A stretch of DNA of 45,815 nt, from contig RBNJ01000058.1 of NCBI GenBank assembly GCA_003990765.1, forward strand, positions 1 to 45,815, read 5' to 3'. Position 1 is the stretch's first letter. Every line of letters begins with the position of its first letter. Shown here piece after piece: positions 6,201-45,602 of the stretch. The translations under genes and the position numbers were made by a program. The notes under the pieces were generated by a model, which was not told the DNA's origin, did no database searches, and saw only the letters and a program-made list of their open reading frames with translations. The stretch is from Jimgerdemannia flammicorona (Eukaryota).

Positions 6201-8288
6201 AATACCCCAGCAAGTTTTCAGCAAATGATGAACAGAGTCTTCAGCAATGAGATTGGAAAATAGCTCTTTGTCTATATTGATAATATAATCATCTTCAGCA
6301 ATACTACATGGGAACATATCAACTACATACAGCTAGCCCTCAAGAAGCTCAAGGAGCATGGTCTCTACATCAAGCCCAAGAAGTATAAGTTTGTAGCTCA
6401 GGAAATCACCTACCTAGGACACCTCATCAACTAGACTGGAATCCACACAGACTCTATGAAGATTGAGACTATTGCAGTCTACCTGAGACCCAGAACAACC
6501 ACAGAAGTCCATGTCTTCCTTGGACTGGCCTCCTACTACAGAAAATTCATCAAAAAATACTCCAATATTGCAGCACCTATCTATGAGCTACTGAAGAAAG
6601 AGACTAAATTCAAATAGATCAAGAAATACCAAGAAATCTTCAATGAACTCAAGACTATGTTGACCTAAGCACCCATTCCTCAGAAGACCAGATTGGAACC
6701 TAGAGTTCATCCTACAGACAGATGCAAGTACTATAGAACTTGGAGCAGTCCTAGCTCAGAAGAAAGATGGACATAAATATGTCATCTCTTATATAAGCTG
6801 AGGTACCTGCAGAGTGGAACAGAACTACAAGTCATGTACTCAAATACTTGGCAGTAGTTTGAGCAGTAGACAAGTTCCACTACTACCTAGCTGAGAAATA
6901 CTTCACTATTCAAACAGACCATTCTGCTCTTGCTTGGCTATTCCACACTCTGAACTCCAAAGAAATATATACTAAATAGATCTATAGGCTATAAGAGTAT
7001 GACTGTACTGTCAAGCACCACTCAGAAAGAACTAATGCCAATGCTGATATACTCTCAAGGATACTCCAAACACCTCCATTAAGACTATTCAATATGAATA
7101 AGAAGTTATACTATTGATTAATCAACTATTTTAGGTAGCAGAAGATGCTCAACCACCTTGAACTCTGGACAATCACCATCATCAACCAGACTTGAAAACA
7201 GTTTAAACTAGACAACACTACACTCAGAAAAGGAGGAAAGCTTGTAATACTCAAATACAAGAAGTATCAAGTAATGATAGAAGTATATGAACAGAGATAC
7301 CTAGGAGGAACCAATATATACAATAAGGCAAGAAGAACTATGTGGTGGCCTAAGATAGAAGAAGATCTGTACCAATTTGTCAAAGAGTGTGATAAGTACC
7401 AAAAACAGAAATAAGATCAGTAAGACCAGATACTCAGGTCATCAAGAATTGAGTCTATCTCCTTCCACCACATTGTAATAGATATCATTAGGCTACTATC
7501 AGTAACACTATCAGGAAACTACTACATTATAGTTATTATAGACCTCTTTACTAAATAGATAGAAGCAGGAGCATTATAAGAAGCCAATGCTCTCTCTATA
7601 GCTGACTTCCTGTACTGAGAAATTATCTGCTACTACAAGACACTAAGGCAAATTACCACAGACCATGATACAGAATTTATCAATGGATTCTATGAGATAA
7701 TATATTAGAAATATAAGATTCAGTATATCAAGACCACTGCATACCACTCTCAAGAAAATAGATAGACAGAGAGAACCAACAAGACCCTCAAGAACATCCT
7801 GGTGAAGATCTCAGATATATGAGAATTGAGATAACTACCTCCCAACTGCCCTCTCTATCCTATGAGATATATGATCATAGAGCACACACTTTACTCCAAG
7901 AGAACTGCTTTTTGAAGAAGAAGATTCCAATGGAACCTTAGCTACAAATCTAGACCTAACTTAGAGATAGATTGACTCAGAAATCCAGAGACTACATCAA
8001 ATCAGGAAGAAGGCTGAATATTATATCATCAAGTCACAAGTACTGATGAGGAAGAATATAGAAAAGAATCACAAGACCCTAAAACCCATCCAAATTGGAG
8101 AAATGGTTCTACTGTATTGAAATATAGTAGAAGCCTCATAATTATAAAAATTGGAGCCTAAATGGGAAGGACCCTTCTATGAGCAAGATATTAAGAGAAC
8201 TATCTTCTGGCTTAGAAAAATCTCAGAGACCATACTGCCTACTATAGTATACAGGAATAGACTCAAGAAGTACCATAAACCTATATAA
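3231..8288 (+). pseudogene. gag-pol: Degenerate gag-pol of family A copy 1 (capsid, protease, Cys/His module, dUTPase, RT, RNase H, integrase)
   Basis: MHPPTFYGY capsid start; IIDT protease; GIIDPDYTGE and RGEQGFGST dUTPase; RLCIDYRKLN, LDLFSGFH and YIDN RT; FILQTDAS RNase H; QEN..ERTN and LEPKWEGP integrase; many transition-derived stops. Confidence 0.9.
5172..5583 (+). pseudogene. dut: dUTPase domain in family A pol
   Basis: ORF 5238-5711 carries RNSL (motif 2), GIIDPDYTGE (motif 3), IGQML (motif 4) and RGEQGFGST (motif 5). Confidence 0.9.
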
Positions 8289-8651
8289 GAGAAGTAAAAT
8301 ATGATGACTGCCTATAAGGTTCTAGTCCATGAATCATAACAGCATGTCCTGTAACCAGCAGACTATCTGTCTGGATCATTCTCTAAGAGATATAGCATCA
8401 GCAACTACTCATCCATGAGACTTTGAAGCCAGAGAAGTTTGAACCATCAACTGATTGGACAAGATCAGAATTAGGCTCTTGCTTTATATAAAGGGAGTGA
8501 CCCTTCACCATTACACCAAAATATATAGGGAAGATACTAGTCCATAAATACTACTTTTTAACCCCTTGCCGGAGGTTATGGGATCAGCAAATTTTTCAGG
8601 ACTGGACCAATGAATAAGGATATTCAAGAAGATCCTTATTCAGGAGGAAGA

Positions 8652-9517
8652 TATAACAGTAACCTCAGAATGATGACATCAGTACAAGAGACAGTCTTTC
8701 CTTGTAAGTCACTAGATTGAAGCATAAGAAGATTATATAACATGACTCACTCAGGCTATAAGATGAGCAATGATGACCAACTGTAAGTCATTGTGACCAC
8801 AGTATAGGCATCTTAAGGAATATAAAAGAAGAATCAAGGAACCACAGTAGCAGAAACTCAATAAGACCCACTAATTCCAAAATAGCTCAAAGACTTACTA
8901 TAAATGAAATGCCTGCTGCTCACCAAACCTCAAGGTCAAGGAATCATCAAGGTACTTTAGTCAAAGAAAGGATATTCTAAGACATCAGAAGAGCCATAAG
9001 GACTCATATAAGAAGGACTCCTAGCCTCAACCTGAGTACTGGGGATCCTTATCACTTTATCCTCTACTACTGTGAAATAGAAATAAGGATCACTATTACT
9101 ACCAAATATCTCCAAATATGACAGAAGTATAAAATAAGAAACTTTCTCTACCAGGAGTTTCCACAGACCAGCCCTCAAGAGTTACAAGATACCACTCCCA
9201 TGGATATATGTGAAACAAGGATAACTAAGAAGATTCATCAGATCTTCAGATATATATCATAGTTAATCCCCAACTTGGAGTATGTTAGAGTTTCAGACTT
9301 CAGAGATCTGTCAGCCTACCATATCAATATACTAAAAGCCAGGGTGGCTACAGAAGTCCAGTTCACTATTACTCTCAATAGTGATAAAGTAGAAGACTTC
9401 TGGCATCCCATTCTTCAGGACAACCTAGATCAATTCCTGCAAGAATTGATCTCAGTATTCTAAGGCCCAAGTATCTAGGTTAGACCTCTCTAAGACCCCA
9501 CATTTGTTTCCTATTTT
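8652..9517 (+). repeat. 3' LTR family A copy 1, left part
   Basis: Follows the PPT and is colinear with 1556-2399. Confidence 0.9.
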
Positions 9518-9548
9518 CAACACAACTTGGAGAAAAGATATTATAGAA

Positions 9549-11569
9549 ATGTCATCAAGCAAGAGTTCTGATGAGCATGCTGGGTCAGGTGAACCTGGGG
9601 CTTTTGGCTGGCAGAATGTCAGAAGGGGTTATGGCCTGGGGATGGGGGCCTTTGGTGGGTTGAAGGGTGGTGAGGGCTCTGGAGGTGGACCAGTGTCTGG
9701 TGGCAATAGGAGGAGGCCTGGCCTCCAAGTTTTGCAGATAAGGTGAAGGAGAGTGGGTGGCCAGCTAGATCTAGGGCTAGTGCTGCTGTGGAAAAGGGCA
9801 AGGCAAGCCTAGGGAGGGGGGGAGGTGCTCAGGTGGGGAATGTGAGTATAGGTGCTGGAGGTACTGTGGCTGGGAGTAGGACTGCTGATGGAAGTGTGAT
9901 GGACAATCAGGAAAAAAAAAGAGATGTGACAGTTGATGGAGGTGTGGGGCAGAGGTTCCTGATGCAGAAGAGAGATCTGGCTGATAGTGTAATAGGGCTG
10001 GCAGTAGCACTGTTACTCAGGAAATTGATCTTGGAGTTTGCAGTAATACTGTGCTTCTGAGGTTTAGTAGTGATAGTGAGGATGGTCTTGGGACTTGTCT
10101 AGAAGCAGGTAGCTGGGGCTGCCTTGGTAAAGTTCCTGAAGGGTCTGGAGGGGGTCAAGGTGGGCTTTGAGGAGGCAGGCCCTCTGGAAGAGGCTCTGAA
10201 GACTGGAGTGGTAATGGTCTCCATGATATACTGCCTGAGGTGGGACCCCAGGGTGGTGCAGCTGTTGGTGAAGGGGGTGCCTACAGTAATGAAGGAGGAG
10301 ACTAGGAGGAGGGTGGAGGAGGTGATGGTGGAGTATGGTGATGTGGTAGATATCAGTTTCCAGGTATGAGAGGGAACTACCATTAAGACTGGTGATGTAG
10401 ATGTGAGGATTAGACTGGTAGGAAGAGAGGCTATAGGGAAGATGAGTGACTGGCCCTCAGTATTGATGTGGGGGGCTTTTGTCTGTAAGGTGTCAAGGGT
10501 GAGAGGGAATGACAAGGAGGAAGAGGACTTATTGGAGGCTCTGGAGGAGTTGAGTAGTACTGTTGAGAGGAGAGCAAAGGCCTGGAAATTGTATGAGAAG
10601 CCGATGCATCTAGAGATTATTGATAGGAAGTGGATTCAAACTAATAAGGTGCAGTGGGAGTAGGCCCAGGGATGCATAAGACAGAGAGAGCTGTTGGTAA
10701 GTATGAGAGGAGGGGCTGTGAAGAAGGTGGATAGAGCTAAGGAGTCTGGGGGTATCAAAGCCAGTGTCTGGGCTAGTAAAGGAGGGGGGGAGGGGGAGAT
10801 GAATAAGGAAGAGACTGGAAAGGTGCTGAACAAGGACCCCTATGCAGATGGTATGTTTGAAGTCTGGGAGCAGGAGTTGGATACCATCCCCCCCCCCCTC
10901 TTATCAGGAGGGGCCCAGTGGTGAATTGAGAGGCAGTGGAAGATATACTGATACAGGGGGCCCTATGAGTACACTTTGGGGTCTCCAATGTGACAAAAGG
11001 GGGCCAGGTGGTGGCAGTTAGAGAGGATGAGCTGGTGGATGTCTCAGAGGAGAAATGGGATAAGGCTGCCAGTATAGGAGCTGATATGTACCACAATGTT
11101 GGATGCTGGGCAGTCAGGGACTCTGGGAGAGAAGGAGGTGGAGAATCTGCTGTGGATGAGCAAGGTGATGGATAACCTTATGGCTGAGGAGTTGGGAGAA
11201 GTGGACCTGCATATAATGCCTGAGGAGCATTGGACACAGATTCTGCATAGAGACAGAGTGGTGGAGGCGCTGAAGGTAGAGATTCTTGTAATCTTTATGG
11301 AGGAGAAGGGGTATGAGGTTGATAAGGTGAGAGAGGCAGAGCTGGCAGTTGTTGCTGGTGAGCAGGCTACCTACTATTGGGCAGAGCATCATGGTTTGCA
11401 GCTCTGGCAGGAGGCCTGTCTGGAGTATCATAAGGACTTTGAGGAGAGAGAAGATGGGGTGATGGTGGAACTTCTGGGAGGGTTGGAGGCACGGGAAGCT
11501 GGAGAGAAGGAACTTGCTGCTGAACATGACTTAGACTTGGCACAGGAGGAGTTAAATGCAGACTTGTAG
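9549..11569 (+). pseudogene. LINE ORF1 (fragmented; Gly-rich N-terminus, RRM-like middle, acidic helical C-terminus)
   Basis: Chain of plus-strand ORF fragments 9504-11569 upstream of ORF2. Domain assignment is by position and composition only. Confidence 0.6.
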
Positions 11570-11600
11570 AGGATGGGATTGATATATAACACTATTTCTT

Positions 11601-14600
11601 ATGAACAGTATAACCAACATTTTCTCTTTGAATGTGAATGGGTTAAGGGGATCTGGGTAGTGTAAGAACATTTTTACTTGGCTCAGGGGATTGAAGGCTG
11701 ATCTTTTTTTACTACAGGATGTATGGTGTGAGAATGAGGATAATTGAGTGGAGTAGACTAGGGAATGGGGTGGAGTTACTGTTTGGTTTGGCAAAGTAGC
11801 AATTCTGGTAAGGAAGGGTAGAGGAGACTTGGGGGGAATCAAGAGCTAGGGTAATCACTTGGTCTGGGGAGATTGGTATCAGCCAGGGTGGGAGTCAGTG
11901 AGGGTTGACTCTTGTTACTGCTCAGCAGTCAGGAGCGAGAGGACTGCATAGATTAAGGAGCTGCTGGAGGAGGGTATTCTCTTGGAGGAAGGGGTTGATG
12001 TTCTCAGTGGGGACTTTAATATGGTTCAGGATTAGCATCTAGATAGATCTGATGGAGAGAGAAATGCAGAGGAGAGAAGTGGCAGTCTAGATACATGAGA
12101 GGAGGTGAAGTATCTGAGCTCCTTAGGAGATATGGGCAGAATATAGTGGGGCAACACTAGGGTCTACACACATTGGGGGAATGGCTTGGGTACAAGGATT
12201 GACTGAATTCTGACAGCTGAGTGTTGGGGTGCAGATGTTTAGAAGACATTAGAGGTGAAATAGTGCCTGTGGTCTGATCACTGGAGACTATTAGGGCAGG
12301 GGTAGTTTGGGGGAAGTAGAGATGGACCTGGACATTGGTGCCTTAACTCCTCCCTACTGGCTGAGAAGGGGTTGTGGGACTTATGGGTGGAGAATATTCA
12401 GGCAAAGGTTTCTATCTAGAGGTAAGAGGGTTTGTCTGTGGGTGTCCATTGGATGAGATTGAAAGAGACTGTGAGGGCCTATTGGGGAGGAGCTGGTAGA
12501 GAAGCTGGGAGACAGAGGAGGAAGTGCACAAGGTGTGCTTCCAATAGGCTGAGGAGACTGCAGATAGATTGGGCAGATTTGCTTACTTCTGATGGGGTAG
12601 AGGATAGAGAGGGTGAAATTGGAAGTGATAGAACTGCAACAGGTGTTGAGAGTAAAGGAGGAGACTCATATATGAGGAATGGCTGCCAGGCTATAGTGGC
12701 AGGGGCTTGAGGAGAGTGAGCAGCCTACTAGGTACTTATCAAGACTCCTCAAAGCTAGGAGGGTGTGACATCAGTGGGATGGGGTCTTCGATGCAGAGGG
12801 GGATATGGTGTATGATATATAATAAATCTTAGGAGTTTTGAAGGAGAGATGGCAGAGTCTATGGAGTGAGGAAGAAGGGGGTGCAATTGAAGATACTCTA
12901 GAGGAGTGGGAGATGCCACAAGTAGCAGGACTGGGTGACTTGATCTTACCAGTACAAGGGGAGGAGATTCAGAGTGTCCTTGTAGCAACTAAGCTTGGGA
13001 TGGCCCTGGGGGAGGATGGGTTATCTTGGGACTTCTGGAAGAAGATAGTAAAGATCTCTGGAGTTTTGGGTGAGATGGCTGCTCTTTGTGACCATGTTCT
13101 TCTGAATGGTGAGTGGGTTGGAGAGCAGGACCTTGGGTTGGTGGCCTTATTGTACAAAGACAAAGAGAGGAGGGAAGACTGGAAGAATTGGAGACTGATC
13201 ATGCTTCTGGATATGGACAGGAAGATAGTGACTAAGGTGATTGTAGTGAGGCTGCAGAAAGTTACCCAACAGGTGCTGGGGGAGAAGCAGCAGGGCTTTG
13301 TTGGAGGCAGACTTATAAGGGATGGAACTGCATGGGTACATGGTATCATTGAAGGGGCCTGTGCTTGTGGACTGGATAGAAGGTTGGTTTTTTTGGACCA
13401 GGAGAAGGCCTATGACTGTGTACAGTAGGTTTGGCTGGGCAAGGTGTTGGATTGAATTAATGTTCCCTCATGATTTTGAGCTTCTATGTTGAATTTGTTA
13501 GAGAGCAGTCAGGTGGCACTAGTGTATAATAGTCACCAAGGGCTGGCATTCTCCTTGGGAAGAGAAGTTCCTCAGGGGGACCCTCTGTCCTCTATTCTCT
13601 ATGCCCTTTCATTAGAATCTTTGATAGATAGGATTCACTAGAAGGTGGCAGAGCTCTCTATATATGGTATAGTGTGGAAGATGGGGGTCTTTGCTGACAA
13701 TATGGTGGTTGGACTTGGGTCTGTGGTAGATGTTGAGGCACTTAAGGAGACAGTGGAATAGTATGAGACACACTCTGGGGTAAAGCTCAACTGACATAAG
13801 TGTGAGACAATAGTGCTAGAGAATAGGCTAGTGGATGGAGATGTCATTGGAACAATTGTCCCTACTAGTGAGATGGTGCGGTATCTGGGCATCTTCCTTT
13901 CTGTATATAGATCTGTCTTGTCATAAGTATGGTGGGAGAGCAGGGTGACCATTTGGGGGGAGGCTCTTAGAGGTTGGGGGGGGCCACTATATCTCTCTGG
14001 CAGGGTGGGTGTTGATTCTGAATGTCTACTGGTTCTCCAAGCTGTAGTATGTAGCCTATTACTTAGACTTCCCAGCTTGAGTGGTAAAGAGGCTAACAAA
14101 GGTGGCTAGAGATTGGATTTGGGCAGAGAGGAGGTCCCAGATCAGTTGGGATACTCTTGCAATACTGGTGGTTAGGGGAGGTCTTGGCCTTGTGGATTTC
14201 CCTAAGAGGTTATACTGCCTGTGAGCCTGGTGGTTGATGAGAGCTACTGAACTGCAGGGAGGGGGTTGGGTACCACTGCTGCAGAAGGTATGGGAGATGA
14301 GACCTCCCCTCAAGGGTCCTTGGGAGATCTGCTCTCTTTGGTAGGGCTGAATGGAATTCAATAGCTATAGTTTAAGGGCTTTTGGTGGGGGGTGATAGAT
14401 GGAGCACACCAAATTGGCCTATGCTGGTGAGGTAATGAGAGGGAGGTAATATGGGGTCCAGATATATGGTGATGGGATAGACTGCTCCTAGGGGATGCTT
14501 TGCTTGCTGAGTTTGATATTGGAGATAGAGTGGAGTGTCAGCAGGGTCTTGGCCAGAATCTTTGGCCAAGTGGCTGGCAGATGGCAGGGATCAGTGAGGA

Positions 14601-15146
14601 GTGGGACTGAGCAAGTATCTGATCATAGAGTGCTGAGGTATGGAGGTGGCTTCCTCCCAAGTTCTGAGTGGTATGGTGGAGGATTCTGCAGAGGAATGTT
14701 ATGCTGAACTTCCACACTAGACATCTGGTAGAAGGTGGACATTTCAATTGTGAGGAGTGTTATAATGTGGGGCAAGCTGGGGGATTTGTACAGATGCCAG
14801 AACATTGGCTGGGAGAGTATGAGGTTTTGAGGGACTTTTGGATAGAAGTAGAGAATAGACTGGGTGTAGAATAAAGACCAGCAGGTGTGGGAGGCTGTTG
14901 GGAGGATTTGAGATCTCAGCTAGTGGGTGGTGTAGGTGATAGTTGGCTCACTATAGGGTGGGTGTTAGTAGTGTAGGTGAGACTGGCTGGTCATTGGCTC
15001 TTTGTATTCAAGGAGGGGTCATAGATAGGGCTATAGAAGAAGGTATTATAGTGGGAGGAGTTGTTGGGAGATCTGCTGACTGGATGGTGGGTGGGTTGGG
15101 GTCCTCAGGGGGGGTGATATCATGGTCTGGTAAAAAGGATCTGTGA
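11601..15146 (+). pseudogene. LINE ORF2 (AP endonuclease + reverse transcriptase + C-terminal Cys-rich)
   Basis: MNSITNIFSLNVNGLR, FLLQD, GDFN, RID and SDH (APE); NWRLIMLLDMDRKI, QQGFVGGRLIRD, FLDQEKAYD, QGDPLS and FADN (RT); CEEC..PEH C-terminal motif. Confidence 0.9.
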
Positions 15147-15305
15147 ACAGAGTGGTAGGAGAGTAGAGATAGTATTAGACAAAGTGGCCTTTTGGCGAGT
15201 AGGGATAGGAGAGGAGAACCCCTCTAAAGGGATCAGATAGGGGGTGGGTTCAATGTATTTATCATATGAGATAGATGGGCAATAAAGAAAGGAAGTCTAA
15301 GTGAC

Positions 15306-15335
<30 letters not shown>

Positions 15336-15339
<4 letters not shown>

Positions 15340-15908
15340 AGACAGATGAAACATTCATGGACCTCATCTCCTTCAGTAATGATGAGGATGAAGCCCCCAT
15401 AGTTCTGAATATTCTACTCTAAGTCCCTTAGTTATACTGAATTATACTAGCATCCTTTTCCTGTATAACAGCTATTCTTCCACTAGTATTCTGACCTTAT
15501 ATAATTTAGAATTATTCTAGCACTATTTTTCTATATCACCAAAATTATACCAGCATCCTGAACCTATATAACCACCTGTGCTGACTCTGGAACTTAGCAG
15601 TTTTCTGTATTTCAGTATTTTTATTTGATTATTATAATTTATATTTAGCTTTATATCTTAGCAACTATTGAATTATATTTTATATAAATACTCTTCTTAT
15701 TTCCTCTAAAATAAAGTCAGTCAAGTTCACTTACACACAATCTCTTACAAGCAATCTAAAGAGATAATAAAACAGTTTAAAAATAAGAAGTTTGAGGACT
15801 ATAAGACTTGAGAAGATACTCCAATAAGAACTTACTTATAACAAACTTGAGTTAGTCTAAGAGATATATCTTGACATATTTGAAGGATTCAGTGACTACT
15901 ATATGATA
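15336..15908 (+). repeat. 3' LTR family A copy 1, right part
   Basis: Colinear with 2520-3104; ends ...TATGATA (from ...TGTGACA). Confidence 0.88.
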
Positions 15909-16235
15909 ATGTTTATAAAAAAAATTAATAAAAAAATTTGAAACTCTATAACTTTAGAAAAACCTAATATATTTTAAAAATTGTTTCATACTTTTATTTA
16001 AATTAAATATTAGAATATTAAGCTTTAGTGATTTAATATTGATTACTTTATATTATATATTGAATTGAATCAAATTTAACTTTAATTTAATTTAATTTAA
16101 ATTTTTATTAATGAGATATACTAATTTAGCAATAATTTTTTTTTTGAAATTTATATAAATATCTTTTTTTTAAGAATTGGCAATCCTTTGGTCTTCTTAG
16201 CAATTATATATATTCTATAGCTTATATATATATAT

Positions 16236-16810
16236 TATAATAGTTAATCTAAATTAGAAACAAAAAATATTTAATTATCTAAATATAATTTTCAAATTTA
16301 ATATAGTATATAGTTAGTAGTTATCTAATTTATATAATATAAAAAAATATTTTACTTATATAGAAAACTTATATAAAATAAGTCATATATATGTATAACT
16401 TAGCTACTATATAGTATAAATACTTTAGTTTTAGAATAAATAATTCTTAAATTAAAATAGTTTAAAAGTAAAGAGACAAAAGAACTAGTATATAAGCCTA
16501 TAGATAGATATATTTCAATTTTATTCATCTTTATATCTAAAGGACTCTGAGAAGTTAAAAAAGATTAAGTATTTAAGATAAAGAAATCTACTATATTTTT
16601 TTGATTATATGACTACTATGTTATAACTTAATATTTATTAGCTAATAATTTAAGATATATAAATCTCTTACTTTTAAGCTAAATAATAAATAACTGCTTT
16701 TATTTCACTCAGACTGATCTAAGATATCTAAATAAGATAAATATAAAATCACTAGTATTTTATAAATATATCTTTGATAAATTAATTATTACCTTTTTTG
16801 AAATTTTAAG
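16236..16810 (+). mobile_element. Fossil family B LTR (16236-16625) + PBS + gag start, extremely AT-converted
   Basis: Aligns with the family B LTR, PBS and gag leader, differing almost only by C>T/G>A. PBS ACTTAATATTTATTAGCTAATAATTT at 16626-16651. Confidence 0.8.
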
Positions 16811-17497
16811 TAATATTATAATAGTTCTAGTTTCTTTAAGAAAAAGTAACTAAATCTGAAAAATTCTAGTAGATCTAAAGTAGCTCAAAGAGATACTTAT
16901 AAATTTAAGTAGTCTTAAAGAATTTCTAAAGAAAAATAAGTTGAGCTTTATTGAGTAAAAAAAAAGAATATTTATAAATCTAAAAAAAAGATATAAAAGA
17001 ATCTTAAAAATAAATAAAAAATCTAAAAAAAAAAATTTCTCAGTAAAGATGACTAATAGAATTTTATAATATTATAAAGAGTTCTAAGTAATAGTTAAAA
17101 CTATAATAATGGTTTGTTATTTTTAATATATAATTATATTATAGCTTAAATATAAATTTTATTAAATTCAAATTTTAATTATTAATAATATAGTATTTAA
17201 ACTTTTGAATAATAATTTTATTTTATTTTATTTAGATAATTATACATAGATATTAATATAATTATTTTAAGTTATATTACTATTATTATAGTTTTGACCC
17301 TCACAAGTATCTAAATCTATTTGAATTTATAGTATACTATTAGATTAAGCTATAATTATCTTTACTATATATTGTTTTTAGATATTCTTTACTACTCTAT
17401 AGTGTTTTTGCTCTCAATTTTAAGCAATAAAAAGGTTTTTTATTAATATTTATAACTGTGATATAGTGAGATAGTAAAAGGGGTTTTTGCTTAATAT

Positions 17498-17986
17498 TAT
17501 AACATAGTAGATGTATAACTATATAAGTATATCAGATTTCTATATCTTGAAAACTTAATCTTCTTTGACTCTGCAGAGTCCTTGAGATGTAGAGATAAGT
17601 GAGTTTGAAGTATATCTACCCATAGACTTATTAGTTCCTTTACTTTTTCTTTACTTTGAACTATTTCAATCTGAGATTTATTTACTCTAGATACTAATAT
17701 ATTTAGATACTAGTATATTTATAAGTTTACTAGCTATAAGATGGCTAAGTTATAACTATATTTTCTATAAGTTATTTTTTATAAGTATAGATCCTCTATA
17801 TCTATAAAATCTCTATAATCATAAAGATTTTATATCTGTAGAATTTCTATATTTATAAAGTTTCTATATTTGTGAAAATATGGCTGCTCTTTATAAGACT
17901 ATACTATATTTGGGAATTAGGTTCAGATACTGTAATCAAATGTCTATTCTTCTGATTCATGTTCCTAATTCAGATCAACTATCATA
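17498..17986 (-). repeat. 3' LTR of family B copy 17498-30932
   Basis: Direct repeat of 30469-30932. Confidence 0.9.
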
Positions 17987-18261
17987 ATTTCCTCCTAAAT
18001 AGATGATTTATCCCTAAAACATTCTATTCACTTGAACTTCTAAGTCTCTACAAGCTGTATCTCCTTATACTGTATAATCTGTATCATCATATTCTTCTAA
18101 TAATATCTTCTGACTTATATAAAGTCTCCTGGAACTACTTTCTGAAAATGAGCTAGAGCTGGCTCATCCTTCTTAAATAACTTATATACTTATTTTACAA
18201 TAGTAATCTGAGTATAAGAGAGCTGGTACTCTCTGATCCAATCTTCTTTTCCCATCTCTAG

Positions 18262-18719
18262 TGTGATGGTACAGTCAAATTTGGAAGAAGAAAATAGGGA
18301 ATAGACACTTGATCGCACCCATTCCCAAAGTAGTATAGCCTTATAGTTAGCAGTCCTCGATTTTGACATTGTCTAAATTCTTAGACATTATCCAAATCGA
18401 ATACCCCAATTTAGTATAGCATTTAGATATTGTCCAAATGTTTCGATAAAGTCCAAATGACTCATTTATTACTTAGTCACCCTCTCATAGCTAGCAAACT
18501 TGTATAAATAACCCAGTATCTTCAAGTGAATAAACCTCAGATCAAAATAGTTCAAAGTAAAGAGATAGCAAAGAAACTAGTAAGCCTGTGGGTAGATATA
18601 CTTCAAACTCACCCACCCTCCCCTACAACTTCAAGAGACTCTGCGAGAGTCAGAACAGTCAAGTTTTCAAGATACAGAAATCTGACATACTTTCAAGAGT
18701 AAGCATCTGCTACATTACA
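18262..18719 (+). repeat. 5' LTR family B (458 bp)
   Basis: TGTGATGG..ATTACA; TATAAATA at 18503 and AATAAA at 18529; matches 24500-24957. Confidence 0.95.
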
Positions 18720-18839
18720 ACTTGGTGCCCATTGGCTGGTGATTCAAGACAAATCCCTCACTTTCAAGCTGAACAATGAACAACTACCACTATCCAAACA
18801 ACCATACAAACTGAGCCCCAATACCCAGACAAGATAGAT

Positions 18840-21800
18840 ATAAGACTGCCAGTATTCCATGGATATACCTCAGATAAATCAATCATCACCTTCATTGATG
18901 ATTTCGAGCAGTATACTGCTGTAAGGACTCTGACAGCAGCACAGCAAGTAGCCCTCATGCCCTTCAGTCTATGAGGCCCTGCTAGAGCAGCATTCACAGC
19001 TGCAACCCATGCAGGAAATGATGCAGATGCCATACTGACAGCACAGAAGACCTGGCTCCAAAATACATATTACACAGATGAGATCAAGCAAGCCCTAAAG
19101 GATTAGCTCAATACAATATGCCAAGGAATGAGTGAGGATCCAAACACATTCTATACCAGAATTCGATATCAGATAATCCTTGCAGATTATGCTGCTGCTA
19201 TCCGAGATCAAGTAGCTGAAACAACCTTCATAAAAGGAGTCCATCCAGAAATAGCCATGGCCATCCGCTCATCACCAGTGATTCTAGATCTGCCACAGAA
19301 GGTCACCTATGCTCAGCGATACTGGATAGCCAGACACCCATAAGACCATACAATGGAGAGAGTTACAGGAGTCAGAATTGAGGCACCCAAGGCAACCAGT
19401 GTGATCCCCACCACAATGATCAATTAAAACACACCTCAGCCAAAAGCTACAGAGCAGCAAAAGAACAGTGACCCTATAGAGGAACTCACCAAAAGGTTTG
19501 CTGAAATGACTGCCCACCTGGGAGATGTGGTAAAGGAAATCTGAGGAAGAGATCGCCACCCTGTTCAGAAGTTCGCCACCACCTCAGACAAGAAGAAAGG
19601 TACCTGCTACAGCTGCAGAGAAGAAGGCCACTACTCCTATGAATGTATGAGTGAAACTAAATGCAAGGCTCAACCAAGCAATGCCACACGAAACAAGGAG
19701 CAGGCCAATACAATCACCTTTGAAGAAATCAGAGAATCCGATGAAGAGAAATGGGAGGCCTATCCTGCTCAGACCACCAAGAAGGATGCTCGCAAAGAAC
19801 CCTACAAGAGACTGCCAGGAAGACCCAAGAAGAACCCAGTGGAAAAGCAGATGGAAACTGACACAGAAAGCCAAGCTGAAGAGATGGACCAAGATATCGA
19901 GCTGAAGCAAGCAGTTCAAGATATCATCCGAGGAACCACTCCAGCCAGTGAAGGAGAAAAAGAAAAGAAGCTTTGCAAGACCAAGACCTTCAAGTATGAT
20001 ATCTTCAAGGATCTCAGTCAATAAAAGGTCAATGCAACCTTTGGTCAGCTTGCAGAAATCCCAACATTCAGATAGCAAATGAGGTTTGGACTTGCCAAAA
20101 CAACCAAGGAACAAGGATGGAAGATAACTGAGGCCAATAATATTCAAGAGGACTCAGGAGAAGAAAGTGAGGACAATTGCAAAACCTCTGCTTACACAAC
20201 ATACCAAATCGAAGATAGAATCTTTGAAGCCATCATTGATACGGGAGCAGGAGGATGTCTCCTTAGTAAAAAGGCAGCAGACCACCTAGGTTGGGATGTA
20301 GAAGAAGCAACTAAGCTAGTATTCATCACAGCTGATGGCACAAGAGCTACACCTCTGGGAAAGATCTGAGATGTTCTCATCAAGATCGGAGGAGCAACAA
20401 TCCCAGTAGATGTAATCATAACCAATGCTACCAACTATGACATCCTCATCAGCAATCAATGGCTTCACAAAGCCAAGGCGGTAATCGATCTCAATGCTCA
20501 GAAGATGCAGATCACCTACTGGGGACAGAAGATACAAATTCCCATCAATGTCAACAAAGGAGTCCTGCCTGATATGGAGGAAGAAGAGAGTGAGCAAGAG
20601 GAAGCTTATATGGTGACTATTCCAAAGAAGAAGAAAGTCAGATGGATGAGTGAAGAAGAATGGTGCAAGAAGATCGCAGAAAGTTATGCCCCACAAGGAG
20701 TCTGTCCCCATGGAATCAAGATGTACTGTATGGAGCATGTCAATGATTGCTACCAGTGTACCATCAGAACCAAGAAGATCTACCAGGAAAGAAGGCAGAA
20801 AGCTCTCAAAAAACAGATCAGAGAAGAAGAGAAGGAGGAAGATGATGAACCACCAGCCCTCCTGAAGGACAGTGATGATGAAGAAGAAATCAAGGTCAAG
20901 ATTCGAAAGATCCACTCTGATGCAGTCTTGCCAGAATACAAGTCAGAAAATGCAGCCAGAATGGACATTGCTACAGTAGAAGAAACTGTACTGGAACCCC
21001 AGACAACCACCCTACTCACAACTGGACTGGAGATGACCATCCCAAAGAATCATGTCGGGATTCTCAAGACAAGAAGCAGCCTGGCTAGAAGTGAAATCAC
21101 AATTGAAGGAGGAGTCATTGATTCAAACTATACTGGAGAAATTCTACTCATTGCTAGGAACCACAATCCTACAATTCCATTCCCAGTCAAGAAGAAGGAC
21201 CAATTGGCACAGATGTTGATCTTCTCAATCATACAGCCAAGGATCATAGAAGTCAAGAATCTGGAGGAAATGAAAAGAGGAAAGAAAGGATTCAGATCCA
21301 CAGGAAGAGGAGTATTCGCCAGCACCAAGATCACCGTACTTGAGCATAAGAAGGAGGAAAACACAAGCAAGCACAGTTACACCATTGGAGATGAATTCCC
21401 ACTCAAGGAGGAACTCAAGAAAATACTTCACAAATTCAAGGATGTCCTTGTCACGGATTTCAAGGATATCAAGGGAAAGACCCCACACTACTATCATGAG
21501 GTAGATACCGGAGACACTGAACCAATTTATCAGAAGGCAAGACCTGTCCTGCCAGCCTACCGAGAATGGCTCAGAGAAGAAATCAAGCAGATGGAAGAAG
21601 CCGGCATCATCAAAGAAGTCAGTAGCCCCTGGTCTTTACCAGTTGTACTAGCTCTGAAAAAAGGAAGCAAACCTGGAGAATTTGCCCCAAGGCTCTGTGT
21701 CGACTACAGAAAGCTCAATGCAGTTACCAAGAAGAATCGCCAACCACTGCTGCTCATCAGTGACATCCTTATAATACTGGGAGATGAAGCAGAGTACTAC

Positions 21801-22826
21801 AGCATCTTGGACTTATACTCAGAATTTCATCAAATTGGACTCACAGAGATGGCAAGTGAAAATTCAGCCTTCATCACCCCAGATGGATCCTACATCTACC
21901 TATGAATGCCATTCGGAATGTGCAATGCACCAGCAAGCTTTCAGTGAATGATGAACAAAATCTTCCACCATGACATGGGAAGATGGATGATGGTCTATGT
22001 CGACAATATAATCATCTATAGCAAGACACCTGAGGAACATCTGCAGTACATACAGCAGATAATAGAGAGACTAAGACAATATGGCCTTTATATCAAACCC
22101 AAGAAGTGTAAGTTTGCAGAAATCAAGATCTCCTATCTTGGCCATATTATCAATCGAGATGGAACACACATAGACCCCCTCAAAATACAAGCAGTAGCAG
22201 CATACCCAAGGCCCACTACTGTCACAGAAGCCCAAGCCTTCATGGGACTTGCCTTCTACTATCGCAGATTCATTAGAGGATTCTCCAACATCACAGGTCC
22301 AATCTATGAACTCAACAAGAAGGATACCAAGTTCCAGTGAACTAGCAGACAACAAAAAGCATTTGACAAACTCAAGACCAGACTAACTCAGGCACCCATC
22401 CTCAGACAACCCAATTGGACCCAAGAATTTATCCTTCAGATGGATGCAAGTGCACAGAGACTAGAAGCAGTCCTAGCTCAAAAAGAAGACAAAAAAGAGT
22501 ATGTCATTGCATATCTTAGCCGTGGAACCCAAGGGGCTGAAAAAGAATACAAGTTCTACAAGTTGGAATGCCTTGCAGTCATCTGGGCTGTGGAAAAGTT
22601 CCACTACTATCTGGCCAGAAGACACTTCACCATCCAGATGGACCACTCAGCTCTCACCTGGCTACTGACAACTGGACAACCCAAGGGAATCTATGCCAGA
22701 TAGATAATGAAGTTACAAGCCTATAATGTAACCATCGTACACTGCCCTGGAAGAACAAATTCCAATGCAGATGCTCTCTCACGGATACCTCGAACTACCT
22801 TCAACCAACAAATCAATCATGAATAA
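18840..22826 (+). pseudogene. gag-pol: gag-pol frame: capsid, CCHC knuckle, protease, Cys/His module, dUTPase, RT, RNase H
   Basis: ORFs 19128, 19647, 20079, 20505, 21948 and 22440 share one frame. Motifs: CYSCREEGHYSYEC, AIIDTGAG, RLCVDYRKLN, YVDN, FILQMDAS, DHSAL, NADALSR. Confidence 0.93.
20895..21305 (+). pseudogene. dut: Trimeric dUTPase domain between protease and RT
   Basis: AARMD (motif 1), KTRSSL (motif 2), GGVIDSNYTGE (motif 3), LAQML (motif 4), RGKKGFRSTG (motif 5). Confidence 0.93.
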
Positions 22827-24011
22827 GGAGCTCTACTATGGAATTATCACATACCTGGGACAGCGAAAGATGCCCCAACATCTGGAAGAATGGACACAAA
22901 CAATTATCAACAGGACATGGAAATAATTCGAAACTGATGGAGAAATACTGAAGAAGGGAAAACTACTGGTTATACCAGAACACAAGAAGGAGCAAGCGAC
23001 GAAATCAGTATATGAACTTGGCCATCTAGGAGGAATGAATACATATGACAAGGCAAGAAGAACAATATGGTGGCCAGAGATGGAGGAAGATATCAGACAA
23101 TTTGTCAAGACATGCGACAAATGCCAGAAACAGAAACAAGACCAATGGAATCAAGCCCCAGGATCAGCACACATAGAACCAGTACCATTTGCCCATATAG
23201 CAATGGATGTAATCAGCCCTCTACCCTTGACCCTGACTGGTAACCGATACATCATTGTCATTGTAGACCTTTTACGAAGTGGATTGAAGCAGGACCCCTC
23301 AAGGAAGCCAATGCACAGTCAATTGCCGATTTCTTCCACAAGGAAATCATCTGCCGGTTCAAGACCCCAACACAAGTAACTACAGATAGAGGAACAGAAT
23401 TCGTGAACCAGCTCTTTGAGGTTCTCTACAAGAAGTACAAGATCCAGCACATTCGAACCACAGCCTATCACCCCCAAGAAAATGGACAAGTAGAAAGGAC
23501 TAACAAAATCCTCAAGAATGTTATCACCAAGATCTGTGATAACTACGAGAACTGGGATCACTATCTGCCAATAGCATTATCTGCTCTCCAGGATATCCAA
23601 TCACAAAGCACCCACTTTACCCCTTGAGAAATGCTGTTTGGAGAAGAATGTTCTCAAGGAATCCTATCATCCAATAGAGATGCTGTATGGAAACATATGG
23701 ACATGGAAATACAGAGACTATACTAAATCAGAAAGAAGGCTGAGGATTACATAACCAAGGTGCAGACACTACAATGGAGGAATGCAGAAAAGACCCACAA
23801 GCCCTTGGAGATTATCAAGATAGGAGACAAAGTTCTAGTGTATCAGAATATGATAGAAGCTTTATGGTCATGAAAACTGGAGCCCAAGTGGGAAGGACCT
23901 TACCTTGTACAAGATATAAAAGGGACCACCTTTTGGCTACGAAAACTCTCAGGCACAATAATCCCCACCACCATTTACCGAAACTGACTCAAGAAATATC
24001 ATGGCCAGTAA
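22819..24011 (+). pseudogene. Integrase ORF (HHCC, DDE, GPY/F; no chromodomain), starting in the +1 frame
   Basis: MNKELYYG..GHLGG..CDKC; IAMDVI, TDRGTEF, QENGQVERTN, LEPKWEGPY; one private frameshift near 23272. Confidence 0.9.
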
Positions 24012-24462
24012 CAAAAGTACTGTGATGGCACTCAAGATCACTAGTGCTGCCCAAAGAGCCATCGAAAGACAATGGCACACCACCGAGCCTCTGACCATAG
24101 AGGCATACTATGAGGATATTCAGAGTATTGTGTAGACTCATCTCTCTCAGATCTCACACTTTAGAGCCTATCAGTATCAGGCAGAATTCCAAGAATACTT
24201 CAAGCTTGGGCAGGTGCTCAATCAGGATCCAGAAAAGACCAAGAAGGACTGGATTGCCGAGTGTCAACTCTCTCACTCACAGATCACTATTGCCAAAAGG
24301 ATCCACAAGTTATTCCAAGAAGATGAACCAGCAATAGACTATCTGAGAGAAGTAACCCCCACTGACTTTGAGAAAGTGAAGAGACACTATTGGGAAACAG
24401 TCATACAGCAAATTGCACAGTACAAGACCATACAGACAGTTGAAGCCTGGGAGTTTGAATAG
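24001..24462 (+). pseudogene. Accessory ORF3, 153 aa, unknown function (one internal TAG)
   Basis: MASNKSTVMALKITS..EYFKLGQ..AKRIHKLF..KRHYWE..QIAQYK..VEAWEFE; an equal-length homologous ORF lies at 33581-33120. Confidence 0.82.
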
Positions 24463-24499
24463 ATGCCCCAGGGATGAGACCATCTATTCAGGAGGAAGT

Positions 24500-24957
24500 T
24501 GTAACAGTACAGCCAAATTTGGAAGAAGGAAATAGGGAATAGACACTTGATTGCACCCATTCCCAAAGTAGTATAGCCTTATAGTTAGTAGTCCTTGATT
24601 TCGACATTGTCTAAATTCTTAGACATTATCCAAATTGAACACTCCGATTTAGTATAGCATTTAGACATTGTCCAAATGTTTCGACAAAGTCCAAATGACT
24701 CATTTATTACTTAGCCACTCTCTCATAGCTAGCAAACTTGTATAAATAACCCAGTATCTTCGAGTGAATAAACCTCAGATCGAAATAGTTCAAAGCAAAG
24801 AGATAGCAAAGGAACTAGTAAGCCTGCAGGCAAATACACTTCGAACTCACCCACCCTCCTCTACAACTTCAAGAGACTCTGTGAGAGTCAGAACAGTTAA
24901 GTTTTCAAGATACAGAAATCCAACGTACTTTCAAGAGTAAGCATCCACTACATTACA
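24500..24957 (+). repeat. 3' LTR family B (458 bp)
   Basis: TGTAACAG..ATTACA followed by the CTAG TSD. Confidence 0.95.
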
Positions 24958-25183
24958 CTAGCTATAAATTAAGTAGCTGTTCTAACTTGAAGTATTCTTG
25001 AAGCTTAGTCCAATTTTGGTAGGTCTTAAAGTGTGAAATTCATAACAGTTATATCTGTACTATACTTTGGATACTATTGAAGGATTTCTCTATTATGGGT
25101 AGTTTGATAGTACACCATTGTCTTTCTATGACTCATTATATAGTACTAGTGATCTTAAGAACTGTGGCCATACTTTGTTGACT

Positions 25184-28100
25184 AGTAATGATACTTCTTA
25201 AGTTGATTTTGGTAAATGGTAGTAAGGATAATTGTACCTGAGAGTTTTTGTAACCAAAAGGTGATTCCTTTTATATCTTGAATAAAGTAAGATCCTTTCT
25301 ACTTAGACTCTAGTTTTTGTGACTATGAAGCTTCTATATATTCTAATATATTAGGACTTTGTCTCCTATCTTAACAATCTCCAAAGGCTTATGAGTCTTT
25401 TTTGTATTATTCTGCTATAGTGTCAATACTTTGGTTATATAATCCTCAACCTTCTTTCTGATTTGGTATAGTCTCCATATCTCTGTATCCATATATTTTT
25501 ATATAGTATCTCTATTAGATAATAAGATTTCTTGAGAACTTTTTTTTCCAAACAGCATCTCTTAAGAGGTAAAATGAGTACTTTGTGATTGAATATCCTG
25601 AAGAGTAGATAATGCTATTGGCAGATAGTAATTTCAGTTTTATAGTTATAATAGATCTTAGTGATGACATTCTTGAGAGTCTTGTTTGTTCTTTCTACTT
25701 GTCTATTTTCCTGAAAGTAATAGACTGTAGTTTAAATATGCTGGATCTTGTACTTCTTATAGAGAACCTTAAAGAACTAGTTCACAAATTCTATTCCTCT
25801 GTCTATAGTTACTTACAATGAGATCTTGAATTAGCAGATAATTTCTTTGTAGAAAAAATCAGTAATTGACTATATATTGGCTTTCTTGAGGGATCCTGTC
25901 TCTATCTATTTTGTAAAAAGGTCTATAATGATAATGATGTATCAGTTACTAGTCAAAGTCAAGGGTAGAGGGCCAATTATATCTATTGCAATGTGTGCAA
26001 AGAGTACTGATTCTATGTATACTAATCCTGGGGTCTGATTTCATTGATCTTATTTCTGTTTCTGGAATTTATTACAGGTTATGACAAATTGTCTGATATC
26101 TTCCTCCATTTTTGGCCACTACATTGTTTTTCTTGCTTTATTATATATATTTGTTCCTCCTAGATGACTAAGTTTATATACTGATTTCATTGTTTGCTCC
26201 TTCTTAATTTAGATATAACTAGTAGCTTTCCTTTCTTTAGTATTTCTATATCAGTCTCAAATTGTTTCCATATTCTATTGATAATCATTTGTATTCATTC
26301 TTCCAGATATTGGAGCATCTTTTACTGTCTCAGGTAGATAATAATTTTATAGTAGAGTTTCTTATTCATGGTTGATTTACTAGTTGAGAGTCCTTCAGAG
26401 TATCTATGAGAGGGCATCTATATTGATATTAGTTCTTCCAAGATAGTACATGATGGTTATGTCATAAGCTTGCAACTTTATAATCTATCTGATGTAGATT
26501 TCTTTGGGTTGTCTAGTGGTCAATAGTTAAATAAGAGTGGAGTAGTCTGTCTGGATAATAAAGTATCTTTCTGTGAGATAGTAGTATAACTTCTCTATAG
26601 CTCAGATAACTGCAAGACATTCTAACTTATAGGATTCATACTCTTTTTCAGCTTCTTGAGTTTCTTAGCTGAGATATATAATAATATATTCTACTTTGTC
26701 TTTCTTTTAAACCAGGATGACTTCTAGTTCTTGGATACTTATATCTGTCTGCAGGATGAATTCTTGAGTCCTATTGGGTCTTCTAAGAATGAGTGCTTGA
26801 GTCAGCCTGATCTTGAGCTTATCAAATGCTTTCTGTTATCTGCTGGTCTATTGAAACTTAATATCCTTTTTGTTGTATTTGTAGATTGGGCTTACAATAT
26901 TAGAGAATCCTTTGATAAACCTATAGTAATATAAGGCAAGTTCCATGAAGACTTGAGCTTCAGTGACAGTAGTGGGCCTTGGATCTGCTACTGCTTAAAT
27001 CTTAATTAGATCTATATATATTCTATCTTAGTTAATAATGTGACTAAGGTAGGAGATTTTGATTTCTATAAACTTGCACTTCTTGAGCTTGATGTAAAGA
27101 CCATGTCTTCTTAGCTTCTCCATCATCTGCTGGATATATTGCAGATATTCTTTGGCTGTCCTACTATAGATAATAATATCATTCACATAAACTATCATTC
27201 ATCTTCTCATATCATAGTGAAAGATTTTGTTTATCATTTGCTAAAAGCTTACTAGTATATTATATATTCCAAATAATATTCATAGATAGATATAGGTTCT
27301 GTCTGGAATAATGAAGGCTGATTTTTTTACTTACTGCTTTAGTAAAGTCAATTTAGTAGAATCCTGAGTATAAATCCAAGATACTATAGTACTGTACTTC
27401 ATCTCCCTAAGTTATAAAGATACCCCTGATAAGGGGCAGTAGTTGGCAATTCTTTTTTGTCATCAGGTTGAGTTTCCTGTAATCAGTACAGAGCCTTGAG
27501 ACAAATTTTTCTAATTTATTTCCTTTTTTTGAGACCAATACAACTGGTGAAACCCAAGGACTACTAGCTTCTTTGATGATACTAGCTTCTTCTATCTACT
27601 TGATTTCTTCTCTGAGCCATTTGCAATAAGCTGATAGAATTGACCTTGCTTTTTGATAGATTGGTTTAGTATCTTCTATATCTATATAATAATAGTAGTG
27701 TGGAATCTTTTTCTTGATATTCTTGAAGTTTGTAGCTAAGATATTCTTAAATTTATAGAATATCTTCTTGAGTTTCTTCTTGAGTGAGAATTTATTTCTG
27801 ATAGTGTAGCTATGCTTATTTGTAGTTTTCTCCTTCTTATGATCAAGTTCTATAATCTTAATACTAGTGAATACTTCTCTTCTAGTAGATCTGAATTTTT
27901 TTTTTTTTCTTTCTATTTCCTTCAACTTCTTGACTTTTATGATCTTTGACTGAAGAACTGGAAAGATCAATATCTATATTAATTAGTTCTTCTTGATTGA
28001 AAATGGGATTGTGAGATTATAGTTTCTAACAATAAGTAGTATTTCTCTAATATAGTCTGAATCAATAACTTCTCCTTCAATAGTAATCTCACTCTTGGCC

Positions 28101-30348
28101 AGGCTGCTTCTTGTCTTGAGAATCCTGACATAGTTCTTTGAAATAATCATTTTCAGATTAGTTGCAAGCAGAGTAGTTGTCTGAAACTCCAGTATAGTTT
28201 CTTCTACTGTGGTAATATCTATTTCAGCTATATTCTCTAACTTATATTCTGGTAGAACTATATTAGGGTGGATTTTCCAAATCTTAACCTTGATTTCTTC
28301 TTCATTATCACTATTCTCTAAGAGGGCTAGTGGTTCATCATCCTCTTCCTTCTTCTTTTCTTATCTTGCCTGTTTCTTGAGAGCCTTCTGTCTTCTTTTA
28401 TAGTAAATTTTCTTGATTCTACTAATACACTGATAGCAATCATCAATATGTTTCATATAGTATATCTTGATTCCATGAGAGCAGACTCCTTGTAGTATAT
28501 ATTCTTTTATAATCCTTTTGCACTATTCTTCTTCACTAATCCATCTGACTTTCTTCTTCTTTTTCTAAGTAGTCACTATATAGGCTTCTTCTTGCTCACT
28601 TTCTTCTTTCTTCATTTTGAATAGTTCTTCTTTGTTGATATTGATGGGAATTTACATCTTCTAACCTTGGTAGATGATCTGTATCTTCTGGGTATTGAGG
28701 TTGATTATTGCTCTGGCTTTATAAAGCCACTAGTTGCTGATGAGAATATTATAGTTGATAGCATTAGTTATGATTATATCTACTGAGATGATTGCTTCTC
28801 CAAACTTGATAGAAACATTCCAGATCTTTCCTAGAGATATGGCTCTTATGTCATCTGATGTAATAAATACCAATTTGATTACTTCTTCAACCTCCCAACC
28901 TAAGTGGTCTACTGCTTTCTTGCTAAGGAGACATCCTCCTACTCTAGTATCAATGATGGCCTCAAAGATTCTATCTTCAATTTGACAAGTTGTATAGACA
29001 GAGATCTTGTAATTGTCTTCACTTTTTTCTCCAGAGTCTACTTGAATATTATTGGCCTCAGTTATCTTCTAATCTTATTCCTTGGTTGTCTCAGTAAGTC
29101 TATATCTCATTTACTGTCTGAATGTGAGTATTTCTGCCAGCTGGCTAAAAGTTATATTAACCTTTTGTTGACTGAGGTCCTTAAAGATATTATACTTAAA
29201 AGTCTTGATTTTACAAAACTTCTTCTCCTTTTCTCCTTCACTAGCTAGGGTAGTTTCTAAAATGATATCTTGGACAGTCTGTTCCAGCTCTATATCTTGA
29301 TCTATTTCTTCACCTTGGCTTTCTATAGCAGTTTTCATCTATTTTTCCATAGAGTTCTTTTTGAGTCTTCCTAGTAATCTCTTATAGGATTGCTTACAGA
29401 CATTCTTATAGACAGTCTCAGTAAAGTAGGTTTCTCATTCTTCTTCATCTGATTCTCCAATCTTCTCAAAGGTAATGGTATTGGCCTGTTCCTTGTTTTG
29501 AGTAGTACATATACTTGGCTGGGCCTTGTATTTGATTTCACTTATATATTTATATAAGTAGTGGCCTTCTTCTCTACAGGTATAGCAGATATCTCTCTTC
29601 TTATCTAAGATAGTAGTAAACTTCTGAACTTGGGGATAGTCTCTTCCTCTAATTTTCTTTATCATATCTCTTTGATAAGTAGTTATTTCAGCAAACTTCT
29701 TAGCAAGTTCCTCTGAGTTACTATTTCTCTACTATTCAGTAGTTCTTGGCTGAGGTATGTTTTAATTAATCACTATGGTAGGGATCATGCTAGTTGTCTT
29801 AGATACTTTGATTCTGACTCTAGTGATTCTTTCTATTATATAGTCTTGTAAATGTCTAGCTATTCAGTATCACTGGGTATAGGTAATCTTTTATACTAGA
29901 TTCAGAACTACTGGTGATGAGTAGATGATCAGAGCTATCTCTGGGTAGACTTCTTTTATAAAGATTACTTCTGCTACTTAATTCTGGATAGCAGTAGTAT
30001 AATCTGCAAGAATTATCTGATATCAGATTCTGGTATAGGATGTGTTTGGATCCTTACTCATTCTTTGACATATTGTATTAAGCTAATCCTTCAGAGCTTA
30101 CTTGATCTTATCTATATAGTAGATGATTTAGAGCCAGGTCTTCTGTACTGCTAGCATGGCATTGTCATTATTTCTCACATAAGTTATACTATGAATACTG
30201 CTCTTGCTAGTCCTTAGAGACTAAAGGACATGAGAGCTATCTGCTATATTATTGTCAGAGTTCTTATAGCAGTATACTACTTGAAATTATCAATAAAGAT
30301 AATGATCAATTCATCTAAAGTATATCTGTAAAATACTGGTAATCTCAT
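25184..30348 (-). pseudogene. gag-pol: Heavily mutated gag-pol and integrase of family B copy 17498-30932
   Basis: Reverse complement is colinear with 18840-24011 (for example ORFs 27596-27970, 29111-29338 and 29435-29665). Confidence 0.88.

Positions 30349-45522: not shown

Positions 45523-45602
<80 letters not shown>

Follow-up and report, generated by a model that had tools for sequence, protein, structure and literature searches.

In Pezizomycotina, RID-dependent RIP kills repeats through C:G>T:A changes and drives their GC content low (PMC7296669, PMC12543289), and the RIP clusters of Neurospora are 91.9% single-strand (PMC7296669). Neurospora DIM-2 can also mediate RIP alone, with spreading into adjoining single-copy DNA and an even stronger preference for CpA (bioRxiv 10.1101/115501). 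In Zymoseptoria tritici, more than 98% of new C>T mutations fall at CpA while CpG is spared, in a process that is mitotic and Dim2-dependent; the methylation of transposable elements (TEs) by Zymoseptoria Dim2 reaches 43-61% at CG, 10-22% at CA, 3-8% at CC and less than 0.01% at CT (PMC8016269). TE decay with a CpG signature is described from Basidiomycota and Tuber melanosporum, with methylation followed by deamination as the proposed cause; in Tuber, which has both Dim2 and RID, CpG is followed by CpA (PMC4352252). Within Mucoromycota, Phycomyces blakesleeanus has DIM2, and DNMT1 too, and carries 5mC on its TEs in CG and CHH contexts (PMC11258239).

DIM-2-like genes were also reported from Endogonales and Glomeromycota, in an account that gives RID from Pezizomycotina only (PMC9963178). 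As to mutation, Badet and Croll (2025) reported RIP-like signatures only in Ascomycota among 1,239 genomes (PMC12543289). Their screen compared repeats with non-coding DNA on scaffolds over 50 kb, and in it Jimgerdemannia flammicorona is scored 'no_rip', with 23 k-mers enriched in non-coding DNA and 0 in repeats, as are other Mucoromycota in the available part of the table. The available excerpts of a review (PMC13297926) and of PMC4352252 and PMC7928374 give no mutation spectrum for Endogonales, and a literature search that was light on subscription papers found no published description there of the decay pattern presented here. The original prediction, which spoke of a little-described genome defence, is thus supported for the pattern in Endogonales as far as this search reached; DIM-2-like genes had already been reported from this group in PMC9963178.

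The window, that is, the whole stretch of DNA that was analysed, comprises 45,815 nucleotides of one J. flammicorona contig. Alignment and translated comparison show a fragment of a DNMT2 gene and, beyond it, transposons nested over 44 kb. This host gene for a tRNA methylase served to place the organism: an exon of it matches a protein of Jimgerdemannia flammicorona at 100% identity, with Endogone next at 93% and Bifiguratus at 87%. Placement by DNMT2, as had been suggested, therefore yields a host outside Dikarya, in the Endogonales of Mucoromycota. The 5' part of the gene lies on the minus strand at 1-1066 with its CpG intact, and the 3' part is found on contig C2181. Positions 1-1543 hold 68 CpG (44 per kb, with CC+GG at 110 per kb), and the border of this region is sharp, with the final CpG at 1476 and the first LTR starting 68 bases away at 1544. 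Together with C2181:1-1000, the region makes up an island of roughly 2.5 kb in which CpG is intact, flanked on either side by transposons free of CpG. On gene-rich contigs, observed/expected CpG is near 1 in genes and spacers alike.

The transposon block begins with a dUTPase-bearing Ty3/Gypsy element on the plus strand, element A (1544-15909, boundaries approximate), which has LTRs of about 1.5 kb and retains 2 CpG in 1544-9517. Its 3' LTR is interrupted by a later plus-strand insertion (9518-15337) that bears an RT, ends in a poly(A) run and is probably LINE-like. This insertion is G-rich with a strong skew, and despite a GC content of 0.49 it holds just 7 CpG in 9518-15306. Compared by halves, the LTRs of element A show 114 transitions with 3 transversions and 59 transitions with 15 transversions. 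A second, truncated copy of element A was aligned at 40321-45522 (plus strand); an inverted fragment of the 3' end of the RT-bearing insertion follows at 45523-45815 and includes a run of 76 T where the window ends. Between the two copies lie the minus-strand Ty3/Gypsy elements E2 (17498-30932, LTRs at about 17498-17988 and 30468-30932) and E3 (32594-38976, with an internal deletion), each with a 4-bp target duplication, and a minus-strand solo LTR akin to theirs by alignment (31697-32166). Nested in E2, again with a 4-bp target duplication, is the plus-strand Ty3/Gypsy element E1 (18262-24957, LTRs at 18262-18719 and 24500-24957), in which zinc knuckle, protease, dUTPase, RT, RNase H and integrase domains are recognizable in broken reading frames. 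A primer-binding-site-like motif follows its first LTR at 18720-18745. The most decayed feature is a plus-strand fossil of the E1 lineage at 16401-16816, consisting of an LTR end, the corresponding motif (16626-16651) and a leader. An inverted pair (17065-17490 and 32167-32593, 77% identical over about 420 bases) encloses E2 and the solo LTR and may be what is left of the terminal repeats of a DNA transposon; inside 30933-31696 there is a further inverted pair. In both Gypsy families of the window, a dUTPase sits between protease and reverse transcriptase (20370-21905, 35279-36925 and 5238-5711). The element's enzyme was considered as a counter-defence; a dUTPase, however, clears dUTP and leaves bases already deaminated in DNA as they are.

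The fossil motif had been singled out because 11 of its 26 positions differ from the E1 motif, all by C>T or G>A and in non-CpG contexts as well. The recount agrees, with seven G>A and four C>T. All 11 changes are non-CpG, because the 26-mer lacks CpG in 40 of the 40 young copies examined. Only three G/C positions survive in the fossil 26-mer; two are in CpT and the third became a minus-strand CpT once its neighbour had changed. The homology of the fossil to the E1 lineage is real, judged by an alignment score of 373.5 between the E1 LTR end, motif and leader and 16401-16816, compared with 35±4 for shuffles. From E1 to the fossil, 574 aligned columns hold 121 C>T/G>A changes, 20 reverse transitions and 73 transversions, and C>T has occurred at 61 of 87 CpA, 23 of 45 CpC and 31 of 85 CpT sites.

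Severity was further said to follow the order of nesting. Composition does grade from E1 (65 CpG or 9.7 per kb, GC 0.429, CC+GG 98 per kb) through the right part of E2 (no CpG, GC 0.316, CC+GG 44 per kb, within a range of 31-44 per kb for E2 overall) to the fossil (no CpG, GC 0.178, CC+GG 7 per kb), and E1 does lie within E2. The third step is one of divergence instead, and the fossil ranks as the oldest by divergence, not by nesting. No continuation of the fossil was found on either side of E2 by alignment within the window, which leaves a nesting of E2 in the fossil unsupported, and several matches of 57-62% among AT-rich blocks were at shuffle level where retested. E3 has 19 CpG (3.0 per kb) and CC+GG at 82 per kb.

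Divergence between the LTRs of single elements consists almost entirely of transitions: 35 transitions and no transversions in E1 (458 columns), 39 and none in E3 (484 columns), and 45 and three in E2 (459 columns). Seven young elements with both LTRs (3101 columns) gave 104 transitions in columns that were ever CpG, 66 outside CpG and six transversions. To these we added a family alignment of 47 rows, made up of E1, 39 loci fetched from the best matches to its LTR (40 scored of 4327 candidates) and seven second LTRs; of its 6238 columns, 510 were masked as ever-CpG. Outside the masked columns, C>T frequencies are 0.053 at CpA, 0.043 at CpC and 0.012 at CpT, compared with 0.004 for T>C and 0.0005-0.0009 for each transversion class, so that CpA and CpC exceed C>A about 50- to 65-fold; as throughout, copies were picked by similarity to a single element, with 40 scored out of 4327 candidates and 40 out of 2585, and are not a random sample. 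Young copies have lost 57-64% of their ancestral CpG. The preference is set by the 3' neighbour, with CpG at the top, and the 5' neighbour carries little weight. At non-CpG sites, CCG (0.018) and CAG (0.043) lie below CCT (0.057), CAC (0.082) and CAT (0.069), which hints at a preference for CHH over CHG like that of Phycomyces methylation, although CAA (0.043) does not fit. LTR pairs, the E1 family and composition agree that C:G>T:A transitions are concentrated in repeats and affect both strands, and decay is genome-wide within the repeats sampled. The context-resolved comparison of LTR pairs, proposed at the outset, thus supports directional, repeat-confined C>T/G>A change beyond CpG. The expected sequence of CpG first and then CpA and other contexts needs one amendment: CpG is followed by CpA and CpC, but CpT is nearly spared.

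Genes that were duplicated into new surroundings provide a view of the process with a known starting point, the parent standing in for the ancestral state. A histone search of the genome gave 29 matches, and the 24 loci compared are copies of host histone genes, mostly without introns. From these we assembled seven retrocopies of three histone parent genes, all shorter than 1 kb and unlinked to their parents. Six of the seven have a poly(A) and five have target-duplication-like repeats, and their flanks are mostly CpG-poor. Across 5348 columns, the change from parent to copy amounts to 290 C>T/G>A, 12 reverse transitions and 13 transversions. C>T has affected 187 of 578 CpG sites (0.32), 57 of 731 CpA (0.078), 40 of 684 CpC (0.058) and 6 of 664 CpT (0.009), with T>C at 12 of 2691 sites. 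CpA and CpC are 7- to 9-fold above CpT (p = 6e-11 and 2e-7, respectively), which itself shows no difference from T>C (p = 0.15). Two extra pairs of parent and copy, kept outside the totals, agree with this one-sidedness (28:2:0 and 28:3:2). Changes on the parent side are few, with only about three reverse sites common to several copies, and parents and copies remain 89-99% identical. In Pseudocercospora, selection was given as the reason why a histone parent stayed intact while RIP killed its copies (PMC6710886); purifying selection can thus preserve such a parent even where RIP operates. In all, at least nine retrocopy-like histone copies were seen, on contigs C28274, C549, C10146, C13283, C14943, C1376, C2694, C7845 and C699 (loci L194, L196, L209, L207, L208, L201, L203, L210 and L204), and most of them carry a poly(A) and repeats that resemble target duplications; they suggest busy LINE-driven retroposition of host mRNA.

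A control family was provided by the short, palindromic MITE-like repeat at 1303-1505, whose CpGs are kept. In 18 pairs with CpG retained by both members, pairs that are non-independent and were selected for this property, the transition/transversion ratio is 1.47; C>T stands at 0.074 for CpA, 0.046 for CpC and 0.044 for CpT at 0.036 transversions per site, a slight context effect outside CpG. This repeat has dozens of relatives, which often keep CpG even beside a CpG-free flank, and short hairpin repeats may partly escape the decay. A metagenome scan for an orthologous locus between isolates gave 66 loci, of which the best segment was 60% identical and none was usable.

The arrangement of the changes on the two strands was examined with 1470 non-CpG events. 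Of 1288 neighbouring pairs with a spacing of 4-200 bases, a fraction of 0.537 has both changes on one strand. In simulations, independent events gave 0.535±0.014, bursts of two per kb 0.578 and bursts of three per kb 0.618±0.018, and the test therefore has power for bursts of at least three per kb. Clustering was sought in the E1 family and the spacing matches a site-preserving null, while the strand balance across 31 copies is binomial (chi2 20.5). For the retrocopies, same-strand neighbours number 152 of 283 where 139±8.5 are expected, a small and non-significant excess. Many weak rounds of RIP, with one or two changes each, would mimic such strand independence.

The load of mutation rises with the transversion clock. 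Sixteen young loci, at 0.0045 pairwise transversions, have a GC content of about 0.45 and about 13 CpG per kb. In 28 of 29 E2-like loci, at 0.020 pairwise transversions, GC has fallen to 0.31-0.39 and CpG to less than 1 per kb; in this older cohort CC+GG is roughly halved and CT+AG raised, that is, more CpA and CpC have been lost and CpT has been gained. Among young copies, which were selected by similarity, load is overdispersed (chi2 154, 46 df) and does not track the transversion rate (rho 0.08). The scaling with age fits an action during mitotic growth.

Searches of the genome for its own methylases returned three genes of the DNMT1 superfamily (C3657, C8187 and C11271), each with the catalytic Pro-Cys and with what we take to be, from the motif patterns, a DIM-2-like motif I. 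The best PDB matches of C3657 and C8187 are 9BAP/9BAQ/9BAZ, which are structures of Neurospora DIM-2 (PMC11315935). A tree of 34 proteins, picked from about 290 fetched and rooted at the midpoint with C11271 left out, groups the proteins that match C3657 and C8187 with Dim-2-named proteins, in a clade supported at 99/99. This clade stands apart from CMT, from DNMT2 and from an insect protein presumed from its motif to be DNMT1-type. C3657 and C8187 proteins sit on long branches, at 1.4-1.5 changes per column, and the best matches of C11271 are the Mucorales members of the DIM-2 clade. All three are thus predicted DIM-2-like enzymes with a catalytic motif. The genome has two DNMT2 genes, one shared by the window contig (C58) and C2181 and the other on C1744, which had come up as one more methylase hit and proved to be the second DNMT2. 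RID, DNMT1 and DNMT5 have no match among the hits, all of which are DIM-2-like or DNMT2, in searches of a fragmented assembly that used no RID or DNMT5 query and missed one DIM-2 paralog when run exon by exon. A Clr4/SUV39-like Pre-SET region is present. A search for the OTT_1508 deaminase family gave no match, with its control silent as well, and one for the uracil-DNA glycosylase family gave a single match on a short contig.

The best explanation, at a probability of roughly 0.6, is gradual DIM-2-linked mutagenesis of transposon heterochromatin through presumed 5mC. It starts from observations on the spectrum of the changes, their confinement, one-sidedness, strand independence and increase with age, and from the enzyme genes found. 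Transposon blocks would be heterochromatin, perhaps with H3K9 methylation as the guide, and DIM-2-type methyltransferases would act mainly on CpG, to a lesser degree on CpA and CpC and barely on CpT. The changes occur singly, on the two strands independently and continually over time; the chemistry behind this pattern would be the conversion of 5mC to T by a spontaneous or enzyme-assisted deamination that is probably poorly repaired. CpG is seen to be lost first, then CpA and CpC, and CpT last, with an end state of about 16-18% GC. Any insert in a transposon block, be it a transposon or a gene copy, would decay in this way, and genes outside would be spared.

Set against the known systems, the mutation order CpG > CpA > CpC >> CpT is the same as the order of Dim2 methylation in Zymoseptoria. 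The match is to methylation there and not to the mutation spectrum, which lies almost wholly at CpA; here CpG goes first and CpC mutates almost as readily as CpA. Both fungi have a DIM-2 gene and TE-restricted C>T, but J. flammicorona belongs to another phylum and has three DIM-2-like paralogs and no RID match. Its decay would combine a Zymoseptoria-like mutator with a RIP-like end product and yet fails one defining feature of each, since CpG is not spared as in Zymoseptoria and one-strand bursts as in RIP are absent. With Basidiomycota and Tuber it shares CpG as the main target and a proposed role of methylation and deamination; the strong involvement of CpA and CpC with the sparing of CpT is different, and those genomes belong to Dikarya, that of Tuber with RID. 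Phycomyces shares the phylum and DIM2, though methylation rather than mutation was reported from it, and its DNMT1 has no separate match here.

The main rival remains the DIM-2-dependent RIP of Neurospora, which we consider rather improbable. Premeiotic pairing of repeats would here bring about heterochromatin and C>T mutation that spread to neighbouring single-copy DNA, at few changes per sexual cycle. Such spreading would explain both the mutated retrocopies in transposon blocks and their spared parents, the DIM-2-like and Clr4-like genes are at hand, and the divergence of the LTRs is transition-only. The likeness would extend to the link with heterochromatin, since the Neurospora pathway needs DIM-5/H3K9 methylation and HP1, and to the mutation of single-copy DNA among repeats. 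However, the Neurospora process is homology-triggered with an even stronger CpA preference, while CpG leads in J. flammicorona; clusters and strand coordination are absent where bursts of at least three per kb would show; and the border at the DNMT2 region is sharp.

Far less likely is a cytidine deaminase of the APOBEC type that edits retroelement cDNA or silent chromatin with no methylation involved. Such an enzyme would account for a spectrum of C>T only that depends on the neighbouring base. Against it, the preference lies at the 3' neighbour with CpG at the top, the 5' neighbour being minor, and clusters are lacking. The two LTRs of one insertion also differ, and on both strands; the changes therefore post-date integration, and editing during reverse transcription was rejected.

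Classical RID-dependent RIP, a premeiotic process that hits CpA above all and mutates both members of a duplicated pair, is less credible still. Repeat-confined C:G>T:A on both strands, with CpA as the commonest non-CpG target, is what it would leave behind, but CpA is not the main target here, and the same-strand frequency is that of independent events. The parents of the retrocopies are spared, with the caveats of selection on the parent and of short, unlinked duplicates, and at least 40 copies of one LTR are still 93-95% identical. The likeness to RIP that the original prediction had seen thus does not extend to mechanism, given the absence of strand coordination and clustering, the sparing of the gene partner and the lack of a RID match in a search of limited sensitivity. 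Equally hard to credit is ordinary CpG decay with neutral AT-biased mutation, which accounts for the lead of CpG, the ancestral CpG lost from young copies and the 104 of 170 LTR-to-LTR transitions in ever-CpG columns, but is at odds with the LTR pairs (66 of 170 transitions outside CpG and six transversions), with the E1 family and the retrocopies (CpA and CpC far above CpT and C>A) and with the CpG-keeping MITE copies, whose low ratio comes without a strong context effect. DNA damage and assembly error were rejected as well, as genes keep CpG beside CpG-free blocks and the effect grades with element age.

This decay is real and lies outside the lineages in which such mutation is accepted, and on the best reading it is DIM-2-linked repeat mutagenesis rather than RIP proper. 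A spectrum based on alignment reveals strong, repeat-confined hypermutation that a k-mer contrast can miss, because the latter uses scaffolds over 50 kb and compares repeats with non-coding DNA, which in this genome is probably largely old repeats. The result also bears on the question of whether RIP arose from an ancestral mutator that consisted of DIM-2 alone. More tentatively, and as a possibility we regard as doubtful, Endogonales may have a RID-free, DIM-2-based mutational genome defence, with an enlarged complement of three DIM-2-like enzymes that actively drive C>T in the heterochromatin of transposons. In that case, repeat mutagenesis linked to DIM-2 would predate the split of Dikarya, RID-type RIP would be a later add-on, and kingdom-wide screens would have missed it. 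For work on J. flammicorona, dating by LTR divergence is inflated in this genome, since 170 of the 176 LTR-to-LTR differences in the seven young elements are transitions. New gene copies that land among the transposons are destroyed. In this early-diverging, root-symbiotic fungus, outside the groups known for RIP, cytosines are lost among dead transposons while the genes stay intact.
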